From positions 1-34,288 of the IMG/VR virus record IMGVR_UViG_3300014656_001808: a DNA stretch of 34,288 nucleotides; one strand, written 5' to 3'. Made by a program: the position numbers and the translations under genes. Origin of the DNA: a virus (lineage: Duplodnaviria > Caudoviricetes). The first letter of the stretch is position 1; each line of letters starts with the position of its first letter. Positions 7,137 through 34,288 of this stretch are shown here, piece after piece. Below the pieces are notes generated by a model. The model was not told where the DNA came from, did not search any database, and saw only the letters and a list, made by a program, of their open reading frames with translations.

Positions 7137-7627
7137 ACAAAGAATTGAACTCGCCGATCCGGCTCAGCGCAGAGGACAATGCCGTTATCAACCGAATTAT
7201 TTCTCATCAGTTAGTGCATCTGCGCGGGATTCTGGCCAGCGTTGACGCCATTTGTGAATTCCTGGACGAATCAGATGTGCTACCCGACGACGAAGACAAC
7301 CCCGCGGTTTTTGAGCGGGCCACGATAACCGGCCGCATCGAACGCGCCATCCTTGATTGCCAGGATGGCGTTTATCTGGACTCAGATGGCAGATCAGTAC
7401 CTTACTGCCGCCTTTCAGAACCAGATGCAGCCACCATGCGCCAGCGCGAACTGGAAGTTTTAGCGGATCCAGATTTACAGGTGTATCTTGATCTTCTCGG
7501 TCGTACCTATGGCGGCGAATGGAAACCGCTCGTTGGCTGCGGACACGCTATAAAAACCGGCTTTTCCTTCAAAGGCATCGCCGTTTATTACGCTAAAGAC
7601 GGCCCCCCAACAGACGCCGCCAGGTAG
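7133..7627 (+). CDS. Hypothetical protein (lower GC, last early gene)
   Basis: ATG at 7133 with ATGA overlap and AGGA SD; 164 aa. Confidence 0.7.
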   Translation: MNKELNSPIRLSAEDNAVINRIISHQLVHLRGILASVDAICEFLDESDVLPDDEDNPAVFERATITGRIERAILDCQDGVYLDSDGRSVPYCRLSEPDAATMRQRELEVLADPDLQVYLDLLGRTYGGEWKPLVGCGHAIKTGFSFKGIAVYYAKDGPPTDAAR

Positions 7628-7670
7628 GACAAAGCTCCGCTTTTTAGCGAATCATGAATTTCTAAAATCG

Positions 7671-10600
7671 CTATTCATCCTTCGCCTCTCTCTCCTCATA
7701 CCTCCGCGTCAGCTCATCGAGCCGGTCGCGGAATTTCTTTTCCCCCTCGGCATTTCCCGCTTCTTTCGCCACCTTAATCTTCTTCGTCAGCGGCAAATAA
7801 ACTTGACCGTACCAATGGTTCAAGCGCCGGCGGCGAATGTCATCCCGCTCACTCAGTCGCTCCTTACCCAGCCGCCTCAACTTAAAGTGTTCACTGGTCA
7901 TCCGGCGCACTTTGGACGGCAGGCCCAACCGGAATCTTTCCCTCTCGGCGTCATCGCGCTCCAGTTCGGCCCATTCCATCTCGCTGCGACCCCGATCGGT
8001 GACGCGCAACAGCCGGCTCAACCAGGGCGCACCCTTAATCACCGTCTCGGCATACGATTCGTCGTCTTCCCCAAACGGCCCGCCTAACACCGGCTCCAGC
8101 AACGGATGCGCGATTTGCGACAACACGCCGAACTTATCGGCCGTCCAGCTCAGCATGCGCCTGGCCGAATCCCAGCCACCAACTTCATAATCCGCCTCCG
8201 GCACGATCGGCTCGCGAAAAAATGGATCAGTCGGATTGCTCCCCATCGCATACTGCGCCCACTTCGAGACAATCTCAAACGGCGGGCCTGTTGTACCCAG
8301 GAACTCGCCGACGGACTCAAACAGCATATCCTTAGCGGCGTTCTCAGCAGATCCGCGTGTCGTGTGCTTGCCGGCCAGTTCGGCCATCGCGTCCAGCCCC
8401 GCCGAAATAATGTTGCCCATGACTTTACCGGCGTCGTCCTGCGGCAATGTCAGTACGACCACCTTACCCTCATCGTCGCCCGGCCCTTTGATCGTTCCCA
8501 GAGGTATCGCGTCGTAATTATCACGGAAATATGAACTTATGGCCTCGTACATCGCCTGAATCGTCACACCGAACGCGCCCCACAAGGCCGCTTTCTTCAT
8601 CAGCGCCGGCAACAGCGTCCAGCGCACTCGATACCACCAGTAGGCCGCGGCCGTGTCCTTATTGAACGCGGCGTCTTTCTCCTGTTCCCAGCTATTCCAC
8701 TTCACCTTGGAATACATTTTTACCGTGTTGGTAATACTGGTCGCCAGCCCGTATTGCTTCCAATCCGGCGTACCGCCCTTCTTGCGCACGATCATGGCCC
8801 GCTCCTGGCCTGTGATCCCGCGCTTCCCGAGAATCCGGAAGACCGCGACCTTCATCGCCGCTTCCTGAATGATCCCCACGTCTTCCAGCCCTTCCAGCAG
8901 GCCACCCACATGGCGCATCACCCGGTTGCGCGTCTTCTCTTCGTCCATCAGTCCGTGCTGTTTGAGCATCTTCTCAAACAGCTCGGCTTCCGGTGTCGGA
9001 CTCTCGCTGGTCACGTCGATGTACGGTGTGCTGAGCGCCCGCTCGCGATACATCTGCTCGATTTCCGGATCATCCTGCCCCCACGCTCGGCGTATGGCCG
9101 CGCCCATCGCCTTGCCGTACTCTTTCACCACTTCGGCCGTGGTCACCTGCGGAAAATCGCTTATAGCTTGCGCCTTAGCCGCGTCTTTCGCCGTACCCTC
9201 GGCGACCAGTTTCCGCACCCGCCGAGCCCGCTGCCTGCTCATTTCGGCCTGAAGAAGCACCGCCGTCCGCTGTATGTCACGGCCGGGATTGTGTGCCTGG
9301 AACCCCGGCATCAGAGCGACCAGTAGCGGATGCCATATCTTGTATTCCCGACTGCCCAAAAACCGCCCGACATTGTCCAGCCAGCCGATGTTATGGGTCA
9401 TAAACTGCCGCGCGATCGGCACCGGCACGGACGCAACCTGCACCTGGCCATCGTTCATGCGATAGAGCCATTTGCGCCCGGGCGGCGGATTGCGTTTCAT
9501 CTGCCGCGCCCCGTAGGGCAGTTTTTCCACGGTCAGATCCTCTGGAAAGTCGTGTTTCAGCACTTCCCACAGCTTGTTTTTGGCCTTCTGAACCGTGATA
9601 TGCCGCGCTAGCGTCCAGAACTTCATTATCGTCCCGTGGAACGGGTTAAGATTTTCGCTCCACGTACCGACCTGCTTATAGATACCGGGTCCGACCGTCG
9701 CCTCGGTCATGTGCCGGAAGATAACGAACGCCGCGTAGGTGTCTTTGTGCGGCTCGATCTTCTCGGCGTGTGCCTTGGCGCCGTAAAAGCCCACGTCGCG
9801 CGCCTCGACGGTCATATCATAGGCGATGTCGTGAAACTTTCGCGCCAGCGCCTCCAGTTTGGCGTACTTCTCGTCCCCTAAATTTCGCCGCATGTATTCA
9901 AGCTGCTTTTGGGCTTCTTCCGGCACCCAGCCTTCCGGATTCGGCTTATCGGCCCGATCGTGAATCACCCGTTGCATTTGCAGGTAGTCGCCAATGTCGT
10001 AATCGCCCATCCCGGCCTCTTGCAGCGGCTTCTGGACGTAATTGCGCATGTCGCGCAGCAGATCGACTCCCCGCGCATTAGGGTCGAACATCTCGTCCAT
10101 CGCGTAATGCGCGTCACGCGCCCGCTGAAGTGCCGCCTCATCGGCCCCGCGCTTCTCCAGCCGCGGTTCTAGGTGCTTGGTAGGCGCGATCTTATTGACC
10201 ATGTATTGGCTGACGGTCTGTTCGGCCATCTCGCGCCAGCTCAGCCGCGCCGCCTGGATCATGGCCGCGTTGGCCCGCACCTTGTCCGTTCCGCGATCGT
10301 ACATCGCGTGCAGATTTTCCGCCCGTTGTGCCCCGAGCTGGTCGGCGTCGCCGTTCAGATTGATTTGCAGCTTGATATAGGCATCCAGCCACTCCGGCTT
10401 GCGGTTCAGGTACTCGCAGAACCCCCGGAAAAACATCGGCGCGCGCAATTCGAGTTCACCCGGCGTGTTCAGCATGACGCTCAGGGCTTGCGCGTACAAC
10501 TCGCGGCTGCTGTCGCGATATTTGCGATAGCTTCTGGACGCCCGCCGGCGATCCCACGGCGTCCACCACTGCGACAGATCGACCAGCTCGCGACGCAGAA

Positions 10601-13600
10601 CCTTCTCGTCGAGCAGTTGCCGTCGGCGGACTTCTTCCTCGATCAGTTCCCGCCAGCGCTTTCGCACTTCCTGGGCGTCCGGCGTGTGCTCCTCGATCTT
10701 CCGCATGACCTTCCGGCCGGTTGGTATTTCGCGCACGGCGGCGAACTCCTGAAGTTCTTCCGGCACCACGCCGCGTAACGCCTGCATGACAATGTCTTTC
10801 TTCTCGGCGGCGTTCAGCCGCTTGACATAATCCTCCAGTTTCTTGTTGATCTCCTGCCCGATGGTGTGGTTCCAGATGGCCTTGACATCCTCGGGCGTAA
10901 TCGGTGTGCTCTCGCGGATAACCTCATCGACCTCGATCTCGCCGCCGGTGGTCAGTTCCAGCTTAGCCTGGCGCCTGAGTTCTTTCTTCTCGGCTTCCGT
11001 CAATGGTCCGGGCGCCCCTGGAAACGGCGCCATGAACCGTTCCAGGTGTCCCCGCAAACTGGCGATCCGCCCGAGTATGTTACCACGCTTGAGTGTGCCT
11101 TCCGGGATATAGTCCGTCAGGTGTCCCACCTCATGCGCCAGCACCATTGCCAGCAGTTTCGGATCTTCAGCCGCGCGTGGATCGATCTCAATATCGCCAG
11201 CCTGCCACGGCACATCGGCCTCGATGGCCCGGAACTGACCGAGTCTGGAAGCCCGCAACCGTTTGATCCGCGGCGCCCGTCCGAGTAGCTCCTTGGCGAA
11301 TTGGTACAATTCGGGCATCGGCACGCCCTTGAGCGGCATGCGGTCGCCGATCTTACCTTCCGCCCTGGCTTCTTTTGGCGTCCAGTCGATCCGCACTTGC
11401 CCCTCGTCGGCCACCGCAAACGCCGTCCCCCCACCCCCACCTTTCCCCTTCTCGGTAGGACGAAGATTCTCTTCGTCCCCCTTCTCAACTTCCTCAGCCG
11501 CCTTCTCCTTCTCGACTGGCTCAACCAGCTCTTCTTTCGTCGGCACCGCCGCGTAAAACTGGTCGGCTTCGGTCAACCCCTTAATTGTCAGCCCATCGTC
11601 GCCCTTCAGCAGATCCACGTTGACCCGGATGGTATCCCCTTCCTTGGCCGTTTCGGGCACGGCGATCCCGATCGCTTCCGGCCGGCGGAAGATGTACGAC
11701 CCCCCATCTTGATAGTACAGCGCCTTTCTGGCATTCTCGCCACTGCCTTCCTCAAACACGGTGAACACCGGATCCAGCGCGAATTCCGGCACGGACGCGA
11801 TGAAATTTTTCAGTCTTTGCAGACTATCCCGCGCCGTGCTTAAATCATTTGCCTTCTGTCCGCGATACGCCTCTTCCCAAGGCACCACTTTCAATTCCCA
11901 TTTCGGTTCCGTCCGCTCCGCCGCCCGCTGCACCGCCCGCTTAGCCACCTGCTTCGACATTTTCGGCGGAACTTTTGGCGCCAGCGGCTTGAGTGGTTTT
12001 CTTTTCTTGTTTTCCTCCCGCTCGATCCACTCCCGCGCCTTTTCCGTAGGCGCATCCGGCGGCCCGGCTTCCTGCCTGCGCCGATACTGTTCACTCAGCC
12101 TCTCGTTCGCCACCTCCCTCAATGCATCCAGTCGGACCCGGTCCATGGCAGTCAGATGATCCGGCATGTCGGACATCTCTTCAGCCAGCTTTTCAAGTTC
12201 ATACCAGGGATATTCTCTGATAATTCCTCGGTACTCTTCCAGCGCTTCTTCTTCACCCGCCCGCTTCAACTCCAGCACTTCGCGTTCCAGATCGTCGATC
12301 TGCTCCCGTCGCTTATAATGTTCCCCCAGCATGGCATCATTGCGCTTACTTAACCGCTGAAACTTCGGATCGGCCAGTATGGCTTCGTGCTCCACTCTAC
12401 GCCGCGCGTTCGCCCGTTTGGCCATGACCCCCTTGCCCTTGCGCCCCACCGCTTGCTCGGCTTCGGCCGCCTTCTCCGCCACACCCTCGACCACCTTACG
12501 CTGCGTTTGCTGCAAAGCCTTATAGACCAGATCCCGCTTTTTCTGTGTGGCACGATCTTCAACTTCGATCTTCTCGATTTGCTTTTTCAGCCCCTTGATC
12601 TCCACCGCCTTCCGCTTGCCAGCTTCCGGCGGCGGCACTTCCCGCACATGCCCCCGCCGCCCTGTTTCGGTTCCTGGCTCACGCTTAACCTCCGGTTCCT
12701 TGGCCCCCATTTCCCCTGTACTGATTTCAGCCGACCCTAACCCCTCCCCCTCCCCTTTGCGTTCAACCTGCGCGATCTCTGGCGTTCCTTCCCCCGCCTC
12801 CGCCGCTCCTGGAGCCCCTGGCGCCGCTATCGCCTTGTTGCCTTGTTGCCTTGTTGCCTCGATGCCTTCTTCCTCTTTGCCTTCTCGACCTTTTTCAGTG
12901 TCCCGAACACGTAGGCCCGTTTCCGGTCCCCGGTCAACCCCTGCCGGTTGGCCCTTCTCACCAGTTGCTTGTGCAATTTCACCGGCATCCTCGACCTCCT
13001 TTTCCGCCGGCCGCTCCAGCGCCGCTTGCAGGAACCCCGCGAACCAGGCCCGTTCGTCGCTCGTCCATTTATCCGGACCACCCCGCGGCGCAATCTTACC
13101 AAACGGCCCCCTGGCCGATACCGATCCCGCATCCTCGAATTCCTTCACAATCGCCCTAGCCGCCCCCGGCTCGGCATCCGCGAACTTGTTCGCCCCCTCC
13201 TGCGTCATCAGATCCGTTTTCCGCCAGGCCGGACGAGGCTCCGCCTTGCCAGTCACCTTCCGCTTTGCTTCCGGTTTTTCCTTCCGCCAGGCCATCCGCT
13301 CCGCGATTTTCTTGTTAAGGTATTCCAGCCGCTTCGCATCGTTCGGATCCAGCTTCGACGTGCGTGTTAGTTGGTCCTGCATCTTGAACAGCAAATCATC
13401 CGTCGATTTCTCGACCACGTCCCTGAAAGTCTTGCCCTTCTTGGCTAACTCCTTCTGCCGAATCTCGACCAGCTCCACGATCGCCCGCGACGCCGGCTCA
13501 TCGGCCGCCTTGCCCTTATGCTTCGCGTGCAGGCCACTCAGCCCCTCTTCCGTCTGCTGCCAAACGAACCGTTGCAGCTCGGCATGCCGGGCCGCCACTT

Positions 13601-14681
13601 CTCGGCCCTGCCGCGCCACTTCCGCCTGGACCTGCCGCGCGTACCCGGTGATCTGATCGACTGATTTGGCCCCGCGGAATTTCTTCTCGTACTTCTTCCG
13701 CAGCCCCCGATAACCCGCGAACGTCGGCGGGATCAGCATCGACAGAATAGTTTCGGTCGTGTCCGCGCCTTCCACGTAAGCGATCCCACCGAACAGCCCC
13801 GACTCCACCGCCGTCCGGGCCCCCACCTCCGCCGCCCCCTTGGCCGGTATCGACCCGATCCCATGCAGCGTGGCCCCCATGACGAACCCGGCCCCTGGCT
13901 GACCGCCGTTGAACTGGTTCTCGATCTCGAAGGTCAGCGGCGTAGCCCAGCGCGCCGGCATCCTGGCCGGCAAGAGTTTCCGGAAGATCGCCAGTTGCAG
14001 GATGAACCCGGCCAGCCCGGTCCCGACATCGATCGTCTTTTCCATCACCCCTTCCGCTTCCGGCACTTCGATGTTGAGCGTCCCCCGCTCCGCCGCCAAC
14101 TCCGCCAGCGCCAGATCCTTGTGCGTCACTTCCGGCATCGGATACTTTTTTTGTATCCGCGGCCCCTCGAAGAGCAAATCCATGAACATTTCCGGATCGT
14201 AAACGTCCTTCCGCATCTTGCCGTAACGGTCGTACTTGACCACTTCATCGAACGCTTCCAGCCGTTTGCGGAAAACCTTCTGCCGCTCGACCCGGTCGGC
14301 CTCTTCGGCATAGTCTTCCGTCGCCACCGTACTGAACCGCAGCTTCTCCACCGGACTCATAATAATGTTTAATGTCTGCTTCCCCAACCGCATCAACGGC
14401 CCATCCCGCTCCGGCTCTTTTTGCGGGTAGGCCAAAGCTCCAGCTTTGTCAGCCGCCGCCGGCTCCCCGCGTACCATCTGTCGTTCCGGAGCCCCACCGG
14501 CCCAGATGATCGAGTCTCTCATTCGCTGATCCACGATCTGATCGATCCGTTCCAGCATATCCTGGCCGGGCGCCGTTTCTATCTCGGCTGGCTCAACCTG
14601 GCCGGCCAGTACCCGGTCCATCCGGCTCAGCAGATCCGGGTAGGGCGATGTTTCACTTCGTCCAGTCTGCAACGTACTCAT
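7671..14681 (-). CDS. Giant polyvalent/ejection protein with zincin-like metallopeptidase motif and LPD38-like C-terminus
   Basis: 2336 aa, last gene of the morphogenesis operon; LAHEVGH at 11121-11135 and a distal ELYAQ; C-terminal N.TDPFFREPIVP pattern resembles LPD38; long charged low-complexity linker. Confidence 0.75.
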   Translation of the reverse strand: MSTLQTGRSETSPYPDLLSRMDRVLAGQVEPAEIETAPGQDMLERIDQIVDQRMRDSIIWAGGAPERQMVRGEPAAADKAGALAYPQKEPERDGPLMRLGKQTLNIIMSPVEKLRFSTVATEDYAEEADRVERQKVFRKRLEAFDEVVKYDRYGKMRKDVYDPEMFMDLLFEGPRIQKKYPMPEVTHKDLALAELAAERGTLNIEVPEAEGVMEKTIDVGTGLAGFILQLAIFRKLLPARMPARWATPLTFEIENQFNGGQPGAGFVMGATLHGIGSIPAKGAAEVGARTAVESGLFGGIAYVEGADTTETILSMLIPPTFAGYRGLRKKYEKKFRGAKSVDQITGYARQVQAEVARQGREVAARHAELQRFVWQQTEEGLSGLHAKHKGKAADEPASRAIVELVEIRQKELAKKGKTFRDVVEKSTDDLLFKMQDQLTRTSKLDPNDAKRLEYLNKKIAERMAWRKEKPEAKRKVTGKAEPRPAWRKTDLMTQEGANKFADAEPGAARAIVKEFEDAGSVSARGPFGKIAPRGGPDKWTSDERAWFAGFLQAALERPAEKEVEDAGEIAQATGEKGQPAGVDRGPETGLRVRDTEKGREGKEEEGIEATRQQGNKAIAAPGAPGAAEAGEGTPEIAQVERKGEGEGLGSAEISTGEMGAKEPEVKREPGTETGRRGHVREVPPPEAGKRKAVEIKGLKKQIEKIEVEDRATQKKRDLVYKALQQTQRKVVEGVAEKAAEAEQAVGRKGKGVMAKRANARRRVEHEAILADPKFQRLSKRNDAMLGEHYKRREQIDDLEREVLELKRAGEEEALEEYRGIIREYPWYELEKLAEEMSDMPDHLTAMDRVRLDALREVANERLSEQYRRRQEAGPPDAPTEKAREWIEREENKKRKPLKPLAPKVPPKMSKQVAKRAVQRAAERTEPKWELKVVPWEEAYRGQKANDLSTARDSLQRLKNFIASVPEFALDPVFTVFEEGSGENARKALYYQDGGSYIFRRPEAIGIAVPETAKEGDTIRVNVDLLKGDDGLTIKGLTEADQFYAAVPTKEELVEPVEKEKAAEEVEKGDEENLRPTEKGKGGGGGTAFAVADEGQVRIDWTPKEARAEGKIGDRMPLKGVPMPELYQFAKELLGRAPRIKRLRASRLGQFRAIEADVPWQAGDIEIDPRAAEDPKLLAMVLAHEVGHLTDYIPEGTLKRGNILGRIASLRGHLERFMAPFPGAPGPLTEAEKKELRRQAKLELTTGGEIEVDEVIRESTPITPEDVKAIWNHTIGQEINKKLEDYVKRLNAAEKKDIVMQALRGVVPEELQEFAAVREIPTGRKVMRKIEEHTPDAQEVRKRWRELIEEEVRRRQLLDEKVLRRELVDLSQWWTPWDRRRASRSYRKYRDSSRELYAQALSVMLNTPGELELRAPMFFRGFCEYLNRKPEWLDAYIKLQINLNGDADQLGAQRAENLHAMYDRGTDKVRANAAMIQAARLSWREMAEQTVSQYMVNKIAPTKHLEPRLEKRGADEAALQRARDAHYAMDEMFDPNARGVDLLRDMRNYVQKPLQEAGMGDYDIGDYLQMQRVIHDRADKPNPEGWVPEEAQKQLEYMRRNLGDEKYAKLEALARKFHDIAYDMTVEARDVGFYGAKAHAEKIEPHKDTYAAFVIFRHMTEATVGPGIYKQVGTWSENLNPFHGTIMKFWTLARHITVQKAKNKLWEVLKHDFPEDLTVEKLPYGARQMKRNPPPGRKWLYRMNDGQVQVASVPVPIARQFMTHNIGWLDNVGRFLGSREYKIWHPLLVALMPGFQAHNPGRDIQRTAVLLQAEMSRQRARRVRKLVAEGTAKDAAKAQAISDFPQVTTAEVVKEYGKAMGAAIRRAWGQDDPEIEQMYRERALSTPYIDVTSESPTPEAELFEKMLKQHGLMDEEKTRNRVMRHVGGLLEGLEDVGIIQEAAMKVAVFRILGKRGITGQERAMIVRKKGGTPDWKQYGLATSITNTVKMYSKVKWNSWEQEKDAAFNKDTAAAYWWYRVRWTLLPALMKKAALWGAFGVTIQAMYEAISSYFRDNYDAIPLGTIKGPGDDEGKVVVLTLPQDDAGKVMGNIISAGLDAMAELAGKHTTRGSAENAAKDMLFESVGEFLGTTGPPFEIVSKWAQYAMGSNPTDPFFREPIVPEADYEVGGWDSARRMLSWTADKFGVLSQIAHPLLEPVLGGPFGEDDESYAETVIKGAPWLSRLLRVTDRGRSEMEWAELERDDAERERFRLGLPSKVRRMTSEHFKLRRLGKERLSERDDIRRRRLNHWYGQVYLPLTKKIKVAKEAGNAEGEKKFRDRLDELTRRYEEREAKDE
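12827..12988 (-). CDS. Nested 53-aa basic protein in the +1 frame of the giant gene
   Basis: Perfect AAGGAGG SD (13001-12995) 6 nt before the ATG; MPVKLHKQLVRRANRQGLTGDRKRAYVFGTLKKVEKAKRKK... Confidence 0.55.
   Translation of the reverse strand: MPVKLHKQLVRRANRQGLTGDRKRAYVFGTLKKVEKAKRKKASRQQGNKATRR
12832..12859. repeat. 8-bp tandem repeat (GCCTTGTT) x3.5
   Basis: Read directly at 12832-12859. Confidence 0.9.
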
Positions 14682-16219: not shown

Positions 16220-16222
16220 GTC

Positions 16223-18067
16223 TTATTCCTCCGCCGGCTCAGTACGACGAAGATTCTCTTCGTCGATAACGCCAAACATCGAATCAACCAGCACGCCACC
16301 CACCGCGTAAGGCCCACCGTCAACCAGCATCAGATCACCACACTCATCCGGCGCCGCAACTTTTAGATTCTCGAAGACCGTCACCGGACCACCGGCACCC
16401 TTTAGCACGTCACCCGGCCGCACCTCCACCGCCGGCCGCCCGCCGATGGTATGCGTTTCGGTCAGCGTCACGTCACCGTGCGAGGTCACCACCTTCACAA
16501 ACTTATTGCTATCCGGATGCGGCGGGCCGAGATCCTTGGCCACCACTGTATCAAAACCATTGGCACCCAATACCTGATCGCCAAGTTGCACATCTCGTAA
16601 TCGCCGCGTCCCCCGCGCCGTCACCACCGGCGCATCATCCGCCAAACAGACGAACATCTTGGCCGCCATCACCGGGAGTGCCGTGCCAAACAGCGATCCA
16701 ATACCCGCCGCCGTGCCAACCCCGGCCGCCGTTCCCGCCATCGTCCCACCCATGCCGGCAAGGAACGACTGCGAACTACTCGGCGCCGAGTCGCGGTACT
16801 CATCACCGGCCGATCCCACGCCCAGGTTGTACGACCGCTGCGCCGCCATCATCGGATCCGGATACTGGTTGTTGATTCCGCTCAGCACGTTGACCAGGTT
16901 CATCGCCAGGTCACCGCGCCAGCCGAGTTCGTCCTGCCAGCTCCGTTCGTCCGCCCCGATCATCTGGTCACTCAACAGCGCGTCGATGCTCCGCCGCGCC
17001 CCTTGCGACCGCTCCAGGGCACTCAGATAATCGCCCGAAAGCTGCGTCTGGTAGCCCAGTTCTTCGCGCCGCAAACCTTCCTTCAACCGCCCGACCGATT
17101 CCTGCTTCTGGCTTTCGACCCCGGCCGCCACGCCCGGCGCCATGGTCGAGCCCGACAGCCCCAGATCGACCAGCCGTTGCTGCTGCTGTGAATTCAGATT
17201 GTCGTAGTCCCGCCGAATATCCTTCTCGGCCTGCTCACCGAGCCCCTTGAGCTTTTCCATCGCGGCTTCGTAGCGCCCGGAGTAACCTTGCAGCGCCAGC
17301 GGCAGCGCTTCGTTGAGCGCCCCTTGCAACTCCTGCCGCTTGGCCATGTAAGCCGCTTCCTTCGCGGCGACGGCATTGATCTCGTCGGCCTCCGCCTTGG
17401 TCATATCCAGCGTACCGCCCGCCTCCGTCGCCTGCGCCTGCTGTTTGGGTGCATACTTCTCACCAAACGTATTCCACAGCCAGGCATCCCAGCCTTGTTC
17501 GTCCATGCCCGCCCTATGCAACCCGGTCCCGGCCAGTCCACCCGGCCCTTCCCAGGTGTTATAGCGCGCCTCCATCTCAGCTTTCTTGTGCTCCGGCAAC
17601 CAGCTCAGGTCGAACTTGCCACGCACTAACGGTTGCCCGCCACCCCCACCGCCCGCGCGCCGCGTCGGCTGCGCCACACCACCGCCGCCCGCCTGCTGAC
17701 CGCCCATCGGCCCCATCACGTTGATCGCCGGCGGAACCTGCCCATAGGCCGAGCGGTACACGTCTTGCGCCCCGGGCCCGCCCATCAGCGCCGCCGTGTC
17801 CACGTCCACGCCGGTCAACAGCCGGTTGGCCTGCCCCTGGCGCAAGCCCTGCGTCCGCGCCGGACCCTGCGCGAACATCTGCCCGCCGTAACCTTCCAGG
17901 TTGCCGAAGATCCCCCGGATCTCATCCAGGATGCGCTGATTGGCCGCGGTAGCTTCGTCGGTGGCATATTGCGTCCCCACGCCGCCGATCAGGTTCATAA
18001 TCAGCCGCTCGATTTCGGTGTTGGCGCCCCCACCCGCCAGCCTTAATGCTTTACCCAGAAAACCCAT
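16223..18067 (-). CDS. Putative DNA ejection/pilot protein with C-terminal Hint domain
   Basis: Gly/Ala/Gln-rich coiled body typical of podovirus ejection proteins; from Cys474 CLADDAPVVTARGTRRLRDVQLGDQVL...LTETH...VRPGD...GDLML..GGPYAVGGVLVDS matches Hint blocks A, B, F and G. Confidence 0.8.
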   Translation of the reverse strand: MGFLGKALRLAGGGANTEIERLIMNLIGGVGTQYATDEATAANQRILDEIRGIFGNLEGYGGQMFAQGPARTQGLRQGQANRLLTGVDVDTAALMGGPGAQDVYRSAYGQVPPAINVMGPMGGQQAGGGGVAQPTRRAGGGGGGQPLVRGKFDLSWLPEHKKAEMEARYNTWEGPGGLAGTGLHRAGMDEQGWDAWLWNTFGEKYAPKQQAQATEAGGTLDMTKAEADEINAVAAKEAAYMAKRQELQGALNEALPLALQGYSGRYEAAMEKLKGLGEQAEKDIRRDYDNLNSQQQQRLVDLGLSGSTMAPGVAAGVESQKQESVGRLKEGLRREELGYQTQLSGDYLSALERSQGARRSIDALLSDQMIGADERSWQDELGWRGDLAMNLVNVLSGINNQYPDPMMAAQRSYNLGVGSAGDEYRDSAPSSSQSFLAGMGGTMAGTAAGVGTAAGIGSLFGTALPVMAAKMFVCLADDAPVVTARGTRRLRDVQLGDQVLGANGFDTVVAKDLGPPHPDSNKFVKVVTSHGDVTLTETHTIGGRPAVEVRPGDVLKGAGGPVTVFENLKVAAPDECGDLMLVDGGPYAVGGVLVDSMFGVIDEENLRRTEPAEE

Positions 18068-18111
18068 GGCGACTCTCCACTTCTATGTGGGACCGGTTTT
18101 CAACCGGTCAA

Positions 18112-20395: not shown

Positions 20396-20406
20396 ATCGG
20401 TCTCCT

Positions 20407-20940: not shown

Positions 20941-20953
20941 TTCACAGTACGCC

Positions 20954-23443: not shown

Positions 23444-23458
23444 AAACTCACCTTTCAT

Positions 23459-23529
23459 GGGGAGCATCGGCGTCCCGCCGGTATTTCCCGCGGCTGCACC
23501 ATCTGCCCGGCGAGACGCCGACGCTCCCC
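23459..23529. repeat. REPIN-like inverted doublet of GGAG-REP units
   Basis: GGGGAGCATCGGCGTCCCGCCGG (23459-23481) and an inverted copy (23507-23529), 21/23 identical; each arm has its own CGGCG-TCY-CGCCG hairpin. Confidence 0.75.
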
Positions 23530-23542
23530 TCAATCCTCAATC

Positions 23543-24361: not shown

Positions 24362-24367
24362 CGTCTA

Positions 24368-24979: not shown

Positions 24980-24994
24980 TACCCTCTTCCGTTC

Positions 24995-25330: not shown

Positions 25331-25340
25331 AGTACAGCTC

Positions 25341-26339: not shown

Positions 26340-26357
26340 ACTTCACTCCAGCACTTG

Positions 26358-26636
26358 TCAGGGTGCTTCGTCCCTGATCTTCTCGATCTTCCCTTCCGCA
26401 TCCGGCGGCGTTTCGACGCCCACCAGATCCTTTTCCGGCATCCAGCCGGTCACGATCGTGACCAATTGATCTTTGTCCAATGGCCCGGCGTTAATTGCCC
26501 GGCTGCGCCGGGCCGCGTCTTCGATCCGGGCCAGCAACTTCGCCGGGATCTCAGCCCCGCCCAGCATGGTCCTGATCTGATTCCGCTGCACTTCCCCAAT
26601 CACCGACTCATAAAAAGGTTCAACCCGCGGTCCCAT
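26358..26636 (-). CDS. Hypothetical protein
   Basis: 92 aa with AAGGAG upstream; between the decoration and adaptor genes. Confidence 0.65.
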   Translation of the reverse strand: MGPRVEPFYESVIGEVQRNQIRTMLGGAEIPAKLLARIEDAARRSRAINAGPLDKDQLVTIVTGWMPEKDLVGVETPPDAEGKIEKIRDEAP

Positions 26637-26654
26637 TCATCTTCTCCTTCTTCA

Positions 26655-26724
26655 GTAGGACGAAGTTCCACTTCGTCAGTCCAGTAGTGCGATCAGTCCA
26701 GTAGTGCGAAGTTCCACTTCGCAC
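26655..26724 (+). repeat. Cluster of two GTAG-hairpin REP-like units with a 17-bp tandem duplication
   Basis: GTAG-GACGAAGT-TCC-ACTTCGTC and GTA-GTGCGAAGT-TCC-ACTTCGCAC; TCAGTCCAGTAGTGCGA twice (26676-26709). Confidence 0.85.
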
Positions 26725-26741
26725 GGCACCCCGACCCCCAA

Positions 26742-26767
26742 GCCGGCCGGGCCCATGCCCGACCGGC
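26742..26767 (-). terminator. GC-rich hairpin after the capsid/decoration genes (terminator or mRNA stabiliser)
   Basis: GCCGGTCGGGC-ATGG-GCCCGGCCGGC on the - strand (one G-U pair); weak U tract. Confidence 0.45.
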
Positions 26768-26791
26768 CGTGGGAGGGGAAAGAAGCCAAAT

Positions 26792-27844: not shown

Positions 27845-27873
27845 TATCTCACCATTCCTTTCATCAGCTCCGA

Positions 27874-28926
27874 CTAGATCGCCGGGCCGATCAGAATGCC
27901 GTTCTGCCTTCGATCGCGACAGACCAGGTTGCCTTCCCCGTCGATAAACACTGCCAGCACCGTGTGCTTGTTAGCCACCGGTTGCGGCTTGCCTTCAACC
28001 AGGAACCCACCCGGCTTGACGCACCACTCGATCGTGGACCAATCGACCGCCACGATCTGCTGATTCGTCTTGGTGTCGAGTGCCGGCACCCAGCGAACCG
28101 GGTGCCGCTTGAAGATCACCTCATCGAAATACATACCCAGGTCCGGACCATGGTTGTCATTCTGCTGACGGGCCCGTTTCTCCGCCGCTTCCAGCGTGTA
28201 CTCGTCTGTGTAGTACACCTGCTGATCGCGGGCTTCGGTGTAGTTCTCCTGAGTCGGCCGCGGTGCGATGAAGTTAGTCTTCCGGTGCATCCGCGCCCAC
28301 TTCTTGATAAGGTCATCTTCCCCGAATGTCGTCCAGGAGTGGGTCCAATTCCGCCACTGCGCGTGCGTCAGTCCACCGGAAGGATTGGCGTGTCCGCTCG
28401 GCGTGATGCCGCCGAACTCGCCCGCACCGGTAGTTGCCGATGCGCCGGTGATTTTGCTCACGATCCAGTAGAAGATTCCAAACGGTGTCAACGTGTCAGT
28501 GTCGCCCGGCGGATCGGCCCAGAATTTCGCTTCCAGGTACTTGACCAGCGCCGCCTGGCCCTGCTCGCGCCGGATCTTGTACAGATCCAGAATGCGGACC
28601 GGGTCGGTGTTATGGTCAATCTCACCCTGGTCAAAGCTGAAATTCGCGGTAACCTTTTTCCACTGCACGACGACTTCGTGCAGACCGTCCACGACGGCCA
28701 GTACGTCATCGTCGTACATGGCGGTGGCCCGTGCCGAGCCGTTGTCTTCGCCCAGCACGTTCCGCCGAATATCCGTTCCGGGCAACTCTTTAGTCGCCTG
28801 CTCGGTCAGTATCTTGGGGGCCGCGTGGTACCGCTGAAGCGTGTACATCAAGGTGGTGTACTTCAGCCGGTCCAGCCCTTCCTGACTTGCCAGCAGGAGA
28901 TCAGCCAATTCCGCGATCGTAATCAC
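27874..28926 (-). CDS. Major capsid protein (HK97 fold)
   Basis: 350 aa directly after the scaffold; GAGG SD with GTG start; W.NW, F...P..WVP.LD, N..C.DRR.NG C-terminal pattern of a phage capsid family. Confidence 0.8.
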   Translation of the reverse strand: MITIAELADLLLASQEGLDRLKYTTLMYTLQRYHAAPKILTEQATKELPGTDIRRNVLGEDNGSARATAMYDDDVLAVVDGLHEVVVQWKKVTANFSFDQGEIDHNTDPVRILDLYKIRREQGQAALVKYLEAKFWADPPGDTDTLTPFGIFYWIVSKITGASATTGAGEFGGITPSGHANPSGGLTHAQWRNWTHSWTTFGEDDLIKKWARMHRKTNFIAPRPTQENYTEARDQQVYYTDEYTLEAAEKRARQQNDNHGPDLGMYFDEVIFKRHPVRWVPALDTKTNQQIVAVDWSTIEWCVKPGGFLVEGKPQPVANKHTVLAVFIDGEGNLVCRDRRQNGILIGPAI

Positions 28927-28965
28927 GAAAGAGCCTCACTTCCTGCGCTGTTTATAGGATGTCGG

Positions 28966-30081
28966 CTAACCGGATCCGCGATGCTTCGCCTGCGCCGCCG
29001 CGATCTTTTCGATCGCTTTGCGCTGCTTCTCGGCGGCCGTAGTGGCCCCCGGCTTGCGCGCCGTCGGCCTTGGCAGGCTATCTTCGTTGTATTCATCGAT
29101 TTCCCGGTTGGCCTGGTCCTTCACAAGCGCTATGGCGTGCTCGTAAAATCTGCCGTTAAGTGCTCTCCGGAAAACTTCATCTTCATCCGGCACCTGTCCG
29201 CCATTTTCGCGCATCATGCCATTGCTGATCGCGGCCATCGCCTGCCACAGGTCCGTATGCTTCTCGAATTCCGGATCGCTCTCCTGGAGTTTTCCGACGG
29301 GCTTATCGCCGAAAATCTCCTGCCAACCGGGACCCAGCTCCTTGATCCGCTTGTCATGCCGGCTCATAAACTGCCTGGCGTTATGATTGATCTGCTTTTG
29401 ACGGTCGGCCAGAAACACCTGCTCCATCTTGGCCACGCGCTGGTTCATCTCTTTGTAGATGCCCTTCACGGCGGCGGTCAGCGTTTCCTCGGCCACGTCC
29501 TCATCAATCTCACCCAGGTATTTCGGCATTTCCCCCGTTGGCGTGGGCTGGACCTCGACCGCGGGCTCCGTCGCGCCCGCGTCAACCCTGGCCGGCGGCT
29601 GCTCGGTTTTTAACGGAGCTGGCTGCCCCGCCGCCGCCGTCCATTCCATGCGATCCAGCAGGATCGGCAGTCTATCCGGTCCCGCCGCGGCGATCATCTC
29701 GTCGGTATATCCGAACTTCTTCGCCCGTTCCTTGAGCTGATCGCTGATCGCCGGCTTCTCCCGCGCTGCCTTTTCGGGCGTCGGTTCATCGCGGGCCGGA
29801 ATTTTCTCATCGGCCGCGGCATCCTTACCCTTTTCCGGCGCAGTATCTTGTTTGCCCTTCGCGGGCTTCTGTTCTTCAGGCTTCTCCCCCGCCTTTGCGG
29901 CAGGACGAAGTTTCACTTCGTCAGCGTGGCTCCCACCAGGCTCCACCGTTTCTTCGGCCGGCGGCAGCCGGCTCTCGTTAATTTGTGCCAATACGGCCTT
30001 GACCCCTTCGAGCGCCTTCGCACTCGGCGCGGGCACGGTCAAAACCGCCGTATCACCATTTTGCTCTTTGCCTTTACCCAT
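28966..30081 (-). CDS. Capsid scaffolding protein
   Basis: Start reassigned to ATG 30081 (GGAG SD); E/K/P/A-rich disordered N-half and helical C-half; directly upstream of the capsid gene. Confidence 0.7.
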   Translation of the reverse strand: MGKGKEQNGDTAVLTVPAPSAKALEGVKAVLAQINESRLPPAEETVEPGGSHADEVKLRPAAKAGEKPEEQKPAKGKQDTAPEKGKDAAADEKIPARDEPTPEKAAREKPAISDQLKERAKKFGYTDEMIAAAGPDRLPILLDRMEWTAAAGQPAPLKTEQPPARVDAGATEPAVEVQPTPTGEMPKYLGEIDEDVAEETLTAAVKGIYKEMNQRVAKMEQVFLADRQKQINHNARQFMSRHDKRIKELGPGWQEIFGDKPVGKLQESDPEFEKHTDLWQAMAAISNGMMRENGGQVPDEDEVFRRALNGRFYEHAIALVKDQANREIDEYNEDSLPRPTARKPGATTAAEKQRKAIEKIAAAQAKHRGSG

Positions 30082-30108
30082 CGGTTCACTCCGCCAACCC
30101 TGGTCAAC

Positions 30109-30142
30109 AAAAAAGGGCAAGCCGCGCTTTCGCGACTTGCCC
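30109..30142 (-). terminator. Intrinsic terminator-like hairpin upstream of the scaffold gene
   Basis: GGGCAAGTCGCG-AAAG-CGCGGCTTGCCC followed by TTTTTT on the - strand. Confidence 0.7.
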
Positions 30143-30227
30143 AACCAGGCCGCTTCGTGTGTGGGCCGAAGTATTTCGTTAAGCGACCTGGCCAAAGGCC
30201 GCCCGGCCCGCTATTCGTGGTCCGTCG

Positions 30228-31250
30228 CTACTCGCGACGGCCCGCCGCAGTCTCACCGGATGTCTCTTTAACGTCGCTCCAATAATTCCGCAAGGGGTAC
30301 CCCGGAATTTTATCCGCCACGGCGAACCCCGCCGCGTGTTTGTGACCGCCGCCGCCGTACATTTTGGCGATCTCGGAAACGTCCACGCTGCCCTTCCCCC
30401 GCAGTTGGTAGACGTACTTTCCATCCATAAACGACCAGCTCGCCACGAATCCATGCCACCCGGACACGCCCGAGAAACCTTCCCAGACTTTATCATCGAT
30501 CAACGGCCGTTCCGACTGCGCCTTGGCGTACAAGCGCACGATCATCCGGTCGCACACGTCGGAAGCCAGCATATAGGGCGCGTTGACGCACAGGCACTCG
30601 TCCGGCCCGATGGCGACCTTGTCCAGCTCGATCACTTCCGGATTCTTGATCAATTGGATCGCCGCCTTCTCCTGCCACCGCCGGATCGCGATACCTTCCT
30701 GGAACAGCGTATCCAGTGGCTCCACCCGCACCATTTCATCGAAGCCCGCAAAATCAAAGTCGTAGGCATACAGCGCCGCGCAAATTTCGCGCGTCTGATC
30801 CATCCGGAACCGCCACAGATCCCGATCCTCGATATGCCGCAGCAGTTGCGGCACGTCTTCGCCCGGGCAGAAGTATTTCCACGCCAGCACGGCCCCCGAC
30901 TGGTTCATATCGAAGATACAATCGTCCAACCCTTCCAACTCGCTGGCGGCCGACTGGTGATGGTCGATCACCACCACCTTCCTCATCTTGCGCCACTGCT
31001 CGATCTCTTTCCGCGGGATACTGTAGTCCACCAGGTAAACAGTAGCCCGCCCATCAGCCCGCAAAGACGGCACCTTCCCGTACCCCGCCGGCATGTATTC
31101 CGCCCGGTCCCCGAATTTCCGCCAGGCCGCGTAAGCCGCCCCGAACCCGTCCAGGCACCCGGCGTGATAGATCACCACCGGCCTGTCGCAATCCTCATCT
31201 TTTGTGGGACCGGTTTGCAACCGGTCATTCTGCTCTTCAACCATCGTCAA
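30228..31250 (-). CDS. DHH/DHHA1 family phosphoesterase
   Basis: IYH..C.DGFGAA, LVDYS, VIDHH, SGA.LAW, IEDRDLW, GGGGHKHAAGF; AAGGAAGG SD. Confidence 0.92.
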   Translation of the reverse strand: MTMVEEQNDRLQTGPTKDEDCDRPVVIYHAGCLDGFGAAYAAWRKFGDRAEYMPAGYGKVPSLRADGRATVYLVDYSIPRKEIEQWRKMRKVVVIDHHQSAASELEGLDDCIFDMNQSGAVLAWKYFCPGEDVPQLLRHIEDRDLWRFRMDQTREICAALYAYDFDFAGFDEMVRVEPLDTLFQEGIAIRRWQEKAAIQLIKNPEVIELDKVAIGPDECLCVNAPYMLASDVCDRMIVRLYAKAQSERPLIDDKVWEGFSGVSGWHGFVASWSFMDGKYVYQLRGKGSVDVSEIAKMYGGGGHKHAAGFAVADKIPGYPLRNYWSDVKETSGETAAGRRE

Positions 31251-31262
31251 CCTTCCTTTCTT

Positions 31263-31595
31263 CTACGGCCGATACTGTCGATAGCACGCATCCTTGTCGT
31301 ACAGCTTAAAAAACTTGCTCAATTGATTTTCGTGATGCTGATTCTCCACCCGCGCCCTCCCGGTAGCCGGATCGAAGTGCGTCGGGATCCCCGCGTCGGC
31401 CAGCATTTTCTCGTCAGCCCTGATATGTTCCGGATTCGTACCGGTCCCAAACGTATCCGACCAGCGCGGCCACGGATTCGCCGCCCGCGGCAATCGCCCG
31501 GCAGCGCTGGTTGACCCGCAATGTTCGCACACCCGCGCGCCATCCGCGCAAGCCGAATACATTTTGCAATGCCGACAAATGAACCCGCAGATCAT
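31263..31595 (-). CDS. Zinc-ribbon (FmdB-like) protein
   Basis: F.CRHC...CEHCG N-terminal ribbon, then WP..SD..G.NP..I; ATGA coupling. Confidence 0.7.
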   Translation of the reverse strand: MICGFICRHCKMYSACADGARVCEHCGSTSAAGRLPRAANPWPRWSDTFGTGTNPEHIRADEKMLADAGIPTHFDPATGRARVENQHHENQLSKFFKLYDKDACYRQYRP

Positions 31596-31921
31596 TTCTT
31601 CGCTTCCGCCGCCGCCCGTAGTCGTTCCAGCAAATCCGTCTGTTTTTCAACCATCGTGGTCATCCGGTTGACCGAATGATTCAACGCGCTAATGGCTTTG
31701 TCCAGGCCCGGCGGCCGGAACACCAGCGGCCGCCCGTCCGCGTCGCTTTGTTTGTGCAAGTCCGTCAATTGCTCGACCTGCGTGCCGATTTTACAGATTT
31801 TGACGTAACTATCCCCGTTGCTCCCCTTCTTCCGGTAACTCAGCACTTCCTTGATCAACAGCAGCGCGAAAATCCCCCCAACTCCGAGTTCGGTAGCTAT
31901 ATCTGGCAACTGCCCCAGCAT
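31592..31921 (-). CDS. Single-TM membrane protein, holin-like
   Basis: N-terminal TM ELGVGGIFALLLIKEVL followed by a basic patch and coiled coil. Confidence 0.5.
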   Translation of the reverse strand: MLGQLPDIATELGVGGIFALLLIKEVLSYRKKGSNGDSYVKICKIGTQVEQLTDLHKQSDADGRPLVFRPPGLDKAISALNHSVNRMTTMVEKQTDLLERLRAAAEAKK

Positions 31922-31931
31922 AGTTACCCCT

Positions 31932-33635
31932 TTAACCGGCTGCCGCCAGTGCTCCCGCGTTCTGCGCCTGCGCCATGGCCCCGGCCATGTTCGCTTCCTG
32001 GCCGGTTCGCGACGGCGCGGCCGTGTTCACCCGCTGATGCGTCCGCGTCGTATTAGCCGGCGCCGGCGCCGGCTCGTTCGCGCCCGTTGCAACCGGCTCC
32101 GTACTCACGATCACTTCGCTCAGTTCCGGCATGTCGTACATGCGCGCCAGCTTATCGATCAGCATGCCCATATCGAACGACTTGCCCTGCCGCATCATCT
32201 CCGGGTATAGCGGCTGGAGCTGCCCCAGCATGGCCATCAGGGCTTGCGCCCGTTCGCCCGGCGACCGGTACGACAGGGCGTAAGGCTCGATCTTGATCTC
32301 GTAGCTCAGCAGATCGCCCTTACGGTGCTCCGGCCCGAAGCGCACCGGCACGGTCAACCCGGGCACCCCCGGTATCTGCCGCTCGAACACGTGCGCCGTG
32401 ACCGGATCTTTCCAGATATAGTGCCCGATCGTCCGGGCACACCACTGCACGGCCCGCAAAACCCGCTCGGAAATATCCTGGATGAGCATCCCGGCGCGCT
32501 CATTTAAGATCCGCTCCTGCCCCAATGTCCCGGCCGATGGCGACAGGCCGCCCAGCATATCCAGGTTCCCGGCCGTCATAAAGAACCGGTCCACCAGGTG
32601 CATGCCGTAGTTGAACGTCCGCGCGTCCACCCCGCCCAGGCTGTAGCCCTTGAGCAATTCCGGCGACATGACCGGGATATAATCCCCGTCTTTGGAATGC
32701 AGGATCTTCTCGCCGTCTTCCCTGGCGTTCATCGGGCCGGCCAGGATATTCCGCTGCGCGTCGGCCTGGTCCTCCATTTTGCGGTACATATTGTTGGCCA
32801 TGCGATGCAACTCGCTCAGCATGGCCACGCTGGCCAACGGCATGATATTCCGCGGCACGTCGCCGAACCCCAGGAAGTAGTACGGCCCGCTGCGCGGGCC
32901 TTTGAACTTCCACGTCTTCAACGGCCTGGCAGCATCGTGGCCCCCGTCGATGATCATCGTCTGCGTGGCCGGCAGGTACGTTTCCCAAAGATCCACCATA
33001 TCCACCGGCCGGTCGTCCTGCCTGGCCCCCCTGGATGCGTCACCCGCCCGTTCCTCGCTATCGAAAGTGATTTTCTGCAATGCTTCGCGTGCCTCGGCAT
33101 CCCACTTCTCATTGCTCCTGGCTTCTTCGAGTGGCATCTGGAACCGGTGTCCGCGGTACTGCGTATCTTTCCATCTTTCCGCCTGCGTATCGTGGAACCA
33201 GTCGTCCAGGTCGATGCTATCTATATACGGTTGCCTGGCCTTGTAGCCTTCCTGCTTATCGATCGAGCCTTTCAGGATCCCGACCCCGAAGAACGCGCCC
33301 ATGACCGCTTCGCGGATGGTCTCCTGCAACTCCATTATGGCGATCCGCTGATTGATCGAATACTCGAAGTGTGTCGCCGTCGTGCGCAATTGCGGATAGT
33401 GCGTGCTCAGCATCACGCGCGGGTCTTTACCGACGATGTACCGGGCCCAGATTTGCACGGCCATCGTCAGCAGCGGCATCGGCACGGCATGTTCAGTCCC
33501 GCCGTCGCCGTAGTTCCCCCCGCAGTATTCTTTGATGGCGTACAGACGATTTGATCGGTTAGTGGCAAGTTGCTGAAATGAATTTTCCCGCGCGGCTGCC
33601 AGCCGGGCGAAGTCATCGGCATTGTTTGGGTCCAT
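31932..33635 (-). CDS. Portal protein
   Basis: 567 aa with GGAGG SD; GPY..LGF..VP....P, GNLD.LGG....A.TLGQE and a P22-type C-terminal region; upstream of scaffold and capsid. Confidence 0.85.
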   Translation of the reverse strand: MDPNNADDFARLAAARENSFQQLATNRSNRLYAIKEYCGGNYGDGGTEHAVPMPLLTMAVQIWARYIVGKDPRVMLSTHYPQLRTTATHFEYSINQRIAIMELQETIREAVMGAFFGVGILKGSIDKQEGYKARQPYIDSIDLDDWFHDTQAERWKDTQYRGHRFQMPLEEARSNEKWDAEAREALQKITFDSEERAGDASRGARQDDRPVDMVDLWETYLPATQTMIIDGGHDAARPLKTWKFKGPRSGPYYFLGFGDVPRNIMPLASVAMLSELHRMANNMYRKMEDQADAQRNILAGPMNAREDGEKILHSKDGDYIPVMSPELLKGYSLGGVDARTFNYGMHLVDRFFMTAGNLDMLGGLSPSAGTLGQERILNERAGMLIQDISERVLRAVQWCARTIGHYIWKDPVTAHVFERQIPGVPGLTVPVRFGPEHRKGDLLSYEIKIEPYALSYRSPGERAQALMAMLGQLQPLYPEMMRQGKSFDMGMLIDKLARMYDMPELSEVIVSTEPVATGANEPAPAPANTTRTHQRVNTAAPSRTGQEANMAGAMAQAQNAGALAAAG

Positions 33636-33773
33636 TGTTCCGGACCTCCAAACGCGCCGGCTGGCCAGCTTGCACCAACCAGCCGGCGCTACGAGGAGTT
33701 CACATCGTCCGGCAGACTATCCCCGCCACCGGCGTCCGTCAACCCTCAGGTAGCGCAAAGTTTCACTTCGCAC

Positions 33774-33815
33774 AAAAAACCGCCGGCCGACCCTGGCTGC
33801 ACAAGGCCGACCGGC
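33774..33815 (-). terminator. Intrinsic terminator-like hairpin upstream of the portal gene
   Basis: 14-bp RNA stem with G-U pairs (GCCGGTCGGCCTTG/CAGGGTCGGCCGGC) then GGTTTTTT. Confidence 0.65.
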
Positions 33816-33892
33816 TTTCAGAGAAGGTGTGCTTCACACCCGGCTTATCAAAAGCTGAGTTCCAAATCAAGCAGAACGAAGTTTCACTTCGT

Positions 33893-34237
33893 TCATTCCA
33901 CCCCCTCGCCTTCAGTGCCGATTTTCAGCTTATCCTCCTGGTAGATCGCGAGCAGCCTGGCCAGCGATTCCGTTTGTACGTATGGATTGCCGGCATTGGC
34001 GCTCAGCAGGATCAGAATTTCGCCATCGCTGCCAAATTTTACTTCATTGAACATACCCACGTTCAGCGGCAGTTTGAGATACCCCATTGCTTCCACGTCG
34101 GTCGCGGACAGGGCATCGACCACCATCTTCACCTGCTGGCGTTGCATCTCCATCTCTTCCGCCGTCAGGCCCTTGGAGCAACCCGACAGGAAGAGCAACC
34201 AGAGCAGCGCCAGCACCACACCAACCATTTTCCACAT
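33893..34237 (-). CDS. Lipoprotein
   Basis: MWK, hydrophobic core and lipobox LSGC; AAAGGAG SD. Confidence 0.8.
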   Translation of the reverse strand: MWKMVGVVLALLWLLFLSGCSKGLTAEEMEMQRQQVKMVVDALSATDVEAMGYLKLPLNVGMFNEVKFGSDGEILILLSANAGNPYVQTESLARLLAIYQEDKLKIGTEGEGVE

Positions 34238-34288
34238 AGCATTCTCCTTTCAAGCAGGACAAAGCTCCAGCTTTGTCAGTCAGTTAGA

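Follow-up and report, generated by a model that had tools for sequence, protein, structure and literature searches.

Host-type REP hairpins in the late region of a phage genome and their strand polarity

Why should a phage carry a dozen hairpins of a bacterial repeat type that almost all face the same way? The question is raised by the linear virus record IMGVR_UViG_3300014656_001808 (Duplodnaviria; Caudoviricetes), whose 34,288 bases, taken as a whole, are called the window here. A sequence-only reading had listed eleven co-oriented hairpins with a GTAG-type foot, resembling repetitive extragenic palindromes (REPs), and had considered them to be either host REPs colonising the phage or a signal used by the phage itself. 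Our analysis identifies them as elements of a known kind whose setting is unusual, and not as a new phage signalling system. With a probability of roughly 60%, the hairpins are REPs of three families of bacterial chromosomes that were likely inserted singly by REP-associated tyrosine transposases (RAYTs) of a likely Phycisphaerae host, their strand bias likely having been set by replication.

REP families and their bacterial copies

All eleven hairpins, called family 1 here, were found where they had been listed, each on the + strand (Table 1). Their weight-matrix scores ranged from 30.5 to 37.6 bits, and the next-best sites reached 11.8 on the + strand and 8.2 on the - strand. Leaving out one member at a time gave 25.7–36.6 for the members, at most 12.7 for non-members and at most 9.5 on the minus strand, and the maximum score in 30 Markov simulations had a median of 11.2 and a highest value of 24.9. 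A model-free scan for G[TC]AG followed by a stem with at least 7 of 8 pairs returned seven sites on the + strand and none on the - strand (simulated means 0.3 and 0.1). Equal counts on the minus strand or in shuffled sequence, named beforehand as the outcome that would remove the polarity or the significance, were thus not obtained. As had been claimed, the matrix scan found no family-1 copy left of 7624, neither in the window nor in the 1148 extra bases of an overlapping record (L133). A twelfth copy starts at 34284 and is finished in a second overlapping record (L132).

The foot (GTAG in seven of the eleven copies, GCAG in three, GTAC in one) immediately precedes, on the 5' side, an 8-bp stem that has a 3–4-nt loop, which agrees with the definition of a GTAG-tagged REP (tetranucleotide 0–2 nt from a 6–13-bp stem). 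The stem is paired in 84% of cases and has 11 cells changed on both sides, a value equalled by 0 of 500 shuffles; only 5 pairs are left in the copy at 7624, and those at 14427, 14640 and 33750 have one mismatch each. Rfam at gathering thresholds gave no match. In the perfect-stem group-3 REPs among the GTAG-tagged elements (Di Nocera 2013, PMC3733652; Corneloup 2021, PMC8266576) the same GTAG/GYAG/GTRG foot, 8-bp stem and 3–4-nt loop are described. Also described for GTAG-tagged REPs are complementary stem changes between subfamilies, termini that supply a TAG stop, in-frame copies in the Planctomycetes-Verrucomicrobia-Chlamydiae (PVC) group, and tandem or inverted arrangements. Unlike those elements, the ones described here are found in a phage, at about one per 2.4 kb, almost all unpaired and on one strand. 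Family 1 may already be among the catalogued families GTAG-1 to GTAG-24 (PMC3733652); five REP-encoded peptide words had no match in four text supplements of that paper.

An exact-pattern scan of 185,579 species genomes detected 97 loci: 55 in Planctomycetota, 25 in Hymenobacter, 6 in Chloroflexota and 11 elsewhere. Five Planctomycetota genomes contain 5–16 exact copies each, on both strands, with a reversed-pattern control of 0, and the distribution is patchy (9 of the 401 genomes of the class of G004, Phycisphaerae). Every loop type of the phage was also found in bacterial chromosomes, where the copies occur singly, in head-to-tail arrays or as inverted pairs; one chromosomal pair lies in frame in a gene for isoleucyl-tRNA synthetase (IleRS). 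The phage copies are 0–3 mismatches away from a bacterial copy and 2 of the 11 are exact: for the copies at 26655 and 26701 an identical host copy, over 23 nt, is present in L208. Since the same stem and loop variants exist in hosts, the stem covariation reflects host subfamilies and not selection in the phage; the compensatory changes noted earlier are real, their reading as a sign of selection in the phage is not upheld. Foot, stem, loop and chromosomal repetition bear out the REP architecture, and sequence and distribution are those of GTAG-tagged REPs, with cleavage by a RAYT putative here. Repetition of the motif in bacterial chromosomes, mostly those of Planctomycetota, supports colonisation by host REPs. 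Together with its absence from distantly related phage modules (see below), it is the result that had been named as speaking against a phage signal.

In Hymenobacter (G458–G462) the same hairpin core was observed largely as inverted pairs, the foot being GTAA in G462. Chloroflexota have this core as well, so that one REP type is present in three phyla.

Two further families, absent from the first list, were traced from contig joints (family 2) and by comparing the window with all retrieved bacterial loci (family 3). Family 2, with the structure GTGG-GACCGGTT-loop-AACCGGTC, has two phage copies (18,087 and 31,204), both on the + strand, and dozens of copies in G003 and G276; family 3, an inverted pair in the phage, has 129 matches in G006. 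Altogether the phage carries 16 REP copies: twelve of family 1, two of family 2 and the family-3 pair. A single phage signal would hardly explain why three unrelated host families occur in one genome of 39 kb. No inverted partners for families 1 and 2 were found in the window, and only family 3 fits the REP doublets forming hairpins (REPINs) of Bertels and Rainey (2011, PMC3116915). The single orientation reported for all elements therefore holds for families 1 and 2 and not for family 3; co-orientation of the eleven listed copies stands, with 26655/26701 forming a tandem and 34254 standing in tandem with the twelfth copy.

In agreement with the earlier statement that no RAYT is encoded in the window, no Y1_Tnp domain was detected there or in the two overlapping records. 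The search for a RAYT flanked by the same motif, which had been proposed as a check, succeeded for family 2 (L110, 98 bits) and family 3 (L122, 91 bits; cut-off 80), both in Phycisphaerae/Planctomycetota genomes. Family 1 yielded none in Planctomycetes among 92 Y1_Tnp loci and only a GTAA-footed pair of its type (L392:1115-1204) just upstream of a RAYT-like gene in Hymenobacter, whose 74 bits are below the cut-off.

REPs had been described as mostly extragenic, and this placement does not hold for five of the twelve family-1 copies, which lie in frame, in two different frames, inside minus-strand open reading frames (ORFs) of 2336, 614 and 409 aa. Intragenic GTAG repeats are a described minority (PMC3733652). 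The in-frame copies sit at protein ends or in poorly conserved linkers, and their peptides fall outside or at the edge of the regions alignable with homologs. A 9-residue gap in the homolog P0006 at the peptide of the 11455 copy is only suggestive of an insertion, other homologs aligning there without a gap. Late-gene proteins can thus carry REP-encoded peptides.

Strand polarity and its possible causes

With tandems counted once, all 12 unpaired sites lie on the + strand (p = 0.0005), and at each of them the GTAG-type foot is on the C-rich strand of the phage. Judged by fourfold-degenerate sites, 21 of 22 genes have the + strand as their C-rich strand, whichever way they are read; 6 of the 7 genes coded on the + strand are among them. 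With GC skew taken, as is usual, as a proxy for fork direction (PMC3971601), this pattern points to a fixed direction of phage replication. In the hosts, skew was determined from fourfold sites in 20-kb regions; inverted (mixed) clusters (18 in the pooled set) and loci with fewer than 150 fourfold sites (L269, L279) were dropped, Hymenobacter was excluded because its copies are largely inverted pairs, and loci with an absolute z below 3 were left out of the 27:3, 8:4, 8:5 and 12:4 counts given here and below. In G004, 15 of 16 family-1 loci are on the C-rich strand, and the unpaired host family-1 clusters as a whole follow the C-rich strand 27:3 (G004 19:1, others 8:2), compared with 18:12 for the majority gene direction.

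RAYTs act on a folded REP in single-stranded DNA, the reverse complement being inactive; they cleave between C and T, and the link between enzyme and DNA is resolved by a 3'-OH with a terminal C (PMC3333891, PMC8266576). Applied to the phage, this chemistry suggests that a host RAYT would bind a folded REP on single-stranded DNA, nick it between C and T and rejoin it to a 3'-OH. In a one-way replicon unpaired copies would then end up on the C-rich strand, either by joining of the REP strand to nascent lagging-strand ends or by excision of the pair member on the exposed lagging template. Selection would spare a copy only if it fell into a gap, at the end of a gene, or in frame within a variable linker, and the copies could accumulate if the phage resided for long as a prophage; it probably gains nothing from its REPs. 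Head-to-tail arrays and in-frame copies, as in the phage, are known from host genomes too. Most well-studied REPs are inverted pairs, which mask any strand preference. With a small replicon of strong one-way skew in which every one of the 12 unpaired sites is on the same strand, and with a like tendency in host regions of strong skew, a fork-direction model can be tested directly, and phage repeats that face one way would offer a handle on how such repeats spread.

Several results weigh against this host-derived, replication-set origin. A pre-stated replication with 40 fresh regions did not confirm the host bias (8:5 at an absolute z of at least 3, p = 0.58; 21:19 without threshold); G004 and G240 followed it, G441, G445 and G338 did not. 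The pooled 98 regions gave 27:2 at an absolute skew of at least 0.15 (10:2 without G004), 9:6 at 0.07–0.15 and 13:20 below, in bins that, including the 0.15 cut, were chosen afterwards. The phage belongs to the strong-skew class. Host family-2 clusters were on the C-rich strand in a ratio of 8:4, and a family-3-like host repeat in one of 12:4 that is tied with gene direction; all host gene calls came from a crude script. Because every phage site is in the late region, an effect of the replication strand is inseparable there from one of the late-gene template strand, and the preference for the C-rich strand is opposite to that of IS200/IS605 elements, for which the lagging template is the favoured strand (PMC3333891, PMC3971601). 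Among 92 Y1_Tnp loci from 19 genomes, none in a Planctomycete was a RAYT with family 1 at its flank. Contigs of 8 out of 17 runs contained no empty-site allele, no joint skipping a REP, in a kind of data that cannot show absence. Finally, the 7 exact-pattern copies in the window correspond to about 200 per Mb, compared with 1–5 per Mb in five Planctomycetota genomes, a density about 40-fold above the richest genomes tested; the true host may be much richer in REPs than these. We regard the bias towards the C-rich strand as a tendency of strongly skewed regions that is clear in two genomes and may not hold in general.

The same host origin could be combined with a polarity that arises from transcription or target composition, with RAYTs preferring pyrimidine-rich C-T targets or with GTAG being purged from the mRNA-like strand as a stop codon or through R-loop nicking. 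The foot indeed lies on the late-gene template strand at all sites, the + strand is richer in CT dinucleotides (1495 vs 993) and in pyrimidine-rich 10-mers (7812 vs 1193), 95/120 of the 5' flanks of the phage sites are pyrimidine, and the family-2 arrays of another phage fragment (L248, see below) are all on the template strand at a skew near zero. However, a matrix trained on host 5' flanks predicts only 62% of sites on the + strand (P(12 of 12) = 0.003), and a host-like flank preference as the sole cause was therefore rejected; moreover, the TAG in GTAG eliminates just one of three frames, and host family-1 orientation did not follow the majority gene direction, with the 18:12 mentioned above and then 4:9. 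We consider this account possible, on the unlikely side. It might also be that phages of REP-rich Planctomycetes are preferred RAYT substrates, whose single-stranded replication intermediates gather REPs far faster than the chromosome and lose exposed-strand copies by nicking. The one-strand pattern would then be the scar of a conflict between RAYT and phage, and the phage a reservoir carrying REP families between lineages, a speculation to which we give low odds.

Domestication of host REPs by the phage, as hairpins that stabilise or process late mRNA or as nicking sites for the host RAYT in replication or ejection, would account for the high density, for the intact state of most stems, for several sites that, on the mRNA strand, immediately precede a ribosome-binding site or lie at a stop codon, and for the presence of all sites in the late region (p about 0.04 for their absence from the left 8.7 kb). 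It is made improbable by the involvement of three unrelated families, by copies that lie in frame within variable linkers or form tandem arrays like those of hosts, and by distant relatives that do not have the set; in addition, four family-1 copies and the twelfth have feet other than GTAG, the 7624 copy is decayed, and nearness to gene ends is expected where gaps are the sole selection-free space. It is very improbable that a single founder of each family was multiplied within the phage through slippage or gene conversion, processes that would preserve orientation: the tandem 26655-26724 and the pair 34254/34284 resemble local amplification, but the dispersed copies have no common flanks and comprise several distinct host subtypes, two copies being identical to host copies, and family 2 is independently in the same orientation. 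The resemblance to the hairpin promoters of phage N4, noted earlier, lies in GAA and GGA loops, which predominate on the minus strand; a very large ORF in the phage would also be in its favour. Promoters of the N4 type have a GNA-loop hairpin with a C:G closing pair on the template strand and are used by a phage-encoded virion RNA polymerase. Here the late genes have the GNA loops on their non-template strand, the motif is chromosomal in bacteria, and the large ORF has no match in Pfam, PHROG or NCBIfam, with homologs that carry domains of polyvalent proteins; no RNA polymerase was matched by any of 38 window ORFs scanned, about 9 kb of the 47.9-kb record being outside view. The promoter idea found no support, and we give it practically no credence.

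Comparison with known repeats and related phages

A phage rich in REPs is unexpected, given that in Pseudomonas mobile elements are located in REP deserts (PMC3390384). The REPIN paper (PMC3116915) reports asymmetric excision as well as tandem arrays of REPs that point in opposite directions on either side of the chromosome. In contrast to REPINs, families 1 and 2 occur here as singlets or head-to-tail tandems, and whereas that paper treats singlets as decayed remnants, most phage singlets have intact stems. IS200/IS605 elements share a related Y1 HUH chemistry and, as here, an orientation correlated with GC skew (PMC3333891, PMC3971601). Unlike them, the phage elements have no transposase and their recognised strand is C-rich, which agrees with the direction reported for IS91 (PMC3971601). 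Rickettsia palindromic elements are likewise palindromes in frame in protein genes (PMC3184786, PMC3733652), whereas the in-frame copies described here are about 23 nt long (8–9 codons), GTAG-tagged and located in phage late genes. A literature search, with most subscription journals outside its reach, turned up neither a paper on REP-rich phage genomes nor one on REP singlets biased by replichore or fork. Many co-oriented short repeats are also known from phages themselves, as N4 hairpin promoters and mycobacteriophage stoperators, which are phage-specific and read by a phage protein. Unlike these, the repeats of the present phage are common to bacterial chromosomes, and no reader gene was found.

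In seven genomes with related modules, only 2 generic GT[AG]G hairpins were present in 14 regions and no exact family-1 match was found; these modules are distant (22–46% protein identity). Viral and metagenome scans with capsid and DnaB returned no close, non-identical relative, only overlapping records of the same phage and one DnaB of 24% identity. Motif scans of viral contigs gave 6, 2, 1 and 4 stretches; besides the present phage these were single matches (L001, L003, L004, L246) and a phage fragment, L248. The latter (L248:5055-7498, with portal and capsid) carries tandem family-2 arrays in one orientation throughout. A Mu-like head module (L231, G004:C3:63174-83173; terminase, portal, protease, capsid) with a fourfold-site skew of about -0.76 contains six REPs from two families, and each of them is on the C-rich strand, which is the template strand.

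Two candidates for empty alleles were rejected: one depth-3 contig with five deletions of 1–2 bases at 26676-26695, and a contig joint of 14448 to 34256 with 11 other letters between. Repeat arrays of other organisms are the most likely source of both.

Gene layout, likely host and further features

Two overlapping, near-identical records extend the window by 1,148 bases on the left (L133) and 3,559 on the right (L132), so that 39 kb are covered. The left 7.6 kb contain a small serine recombinase, a DnaD-like ORF and DnaB. From 7,671 rightward follows a minus-strand gene run with the 2336-aa ORF, other late genes, the capsid gene and a likely portal, and the large terminase subunit (TerL) lies beyond the right edge of the window. 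TerL homologs were found in 10 of the 401 genomes of the class Phycisphaerae, the only class compared, and the modules bearing them share capsid, likely portal and other late genes with the phage. From these homologs and the best organism-named homologs of DnaB, a planctomycete of the Phycisphaerae is the likely host; REP content, too, can indicate the host lineage of a phage. The recombinase and the location of related modules inside 84–169-kb contigs suggest lysogeny.

Table 1. Positions of REP copies and selected genes in the window
Feature	Position	Strand	Remarks
Small serine recombinase (resolvase type)	191..916	+	common to related prophage-like modules
DnaB helicase	2940..4355	+	best organism-named homologs in Planctomycetota/Phycisphaerae
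Family-1 REP, decayed, 5-bp stem	7624..7643	+	its TAG is the stop codon of the + ORF 7031-7627
2336-aa ORF, large polyvalent-type protein, likely ejected from the virion	7671..14681	-	homologs with ART-PolyVal, SNF2, RadC and similar domains; three in-frame REPs
Family-1 REP	11455..11478	+	in frame in 2336-aa ORF, aa 1068-1076, poorly conserved linker
Possible decayed family-1 copy, not counted	13228..13250	+	11.8 bits, within chance range
Family-1 REP, 4-nt loop type	14427..14450	+	in frame in 2336-aa ORF, aa 78-85
Family-1 REP	14640..14663	+	in frame in 2336-aa ORF, aa 7-14
Family-1 REP, GTAC foot	16242..16264	+	in frame at C-terminus of 614-aa ORF, aa 601-609
Family-2 REP	18087..18109	+	intergenic
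Family-3 inverted REP pair, REPIN-like	23461..23527	23461-23482 +, 23506-23527 -	just before likely start of 859-aa ORF
Family-1 tandem	26655..26724	+	full copies 26655 and 26701, partial copy 26684; intergenic
Major capsid protein	27874..28926	-	weak PHROG match; 24-33% identity to homologs in Phycisphaerae-class genomes
Family-1 REP, GCAG foot	29900..29922	+	in frame in 409-aa ORF, aa 91-99 from TTG start; just upstream of major capsid gene
Family-2 REP	31204..31226	+	identical over 23 nt to bacterial copy L385; 5' end of DHH phosphoesterase ORF
Family-1 REP	33750..33773	+	intergenic
Family-1 REP	33871..33894	+	overlaps stop codon of 114-aa ORF 33893-34237
Family-1 REP (34254-34277) and first 5 bases of 12th tandem copy (TTAG foot)	34254..34288	+	completed in L132

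The DnaD-like replication ORF (1300-2370) is on the minus strand, opposite to its + strand neighbours. Left of the window, a pentapeptide-repeat-like ORF (L133:17618-18765) has a slightly positive raw GC skew, unlike the remaining phage. The C-terminus of the 614-aa ORF (16226-16660, -) has a weak Hint (intein-like) match with E = 0.006, under the Pfam cut-off, and the REP at 16242 supplies its last residues. A scan for intrinsic terminators, hairpins with a U tract behind them, over 14300-34288, a range that leaves 7624 and 11455 outside, gave 17 terminator-like sites, of which one (33874-33894) coincides with a REP copy; shuffles give 15.9, and the REPs were rejected as intrinsic terminators.

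Near-identical pieces of the phage (14300-34288, 7000-18300) are present in runs of several studies from 2016 to 2025, mostly labelled groundwater, with very few differences; the window itself may derive from three runs. An RNA run (X12) covers parts of the late region, without strand or end information.

Several long planctomycete ORFs (in L012, L109, L110, L114 and L122) contain, in frame, a RAYT (Y1_Tnp) domain flanked by its own REP pair. One of them, L012:717-4121 (-), is an IleRS ORF that carries a RAYT domain plus an in-frame family-1 pair, and one 2680-aa open frame in G004 holds two RAYT domains.

A match at 12833-12872 was rejected as a REP; it is a short tandem repeat of an 8-nt unit in 3–4 copies, in frame in the 2336-aa ORF and matched by unrelated contigs in four runs. 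Possibly, it represents another host-type interspersed repeat.

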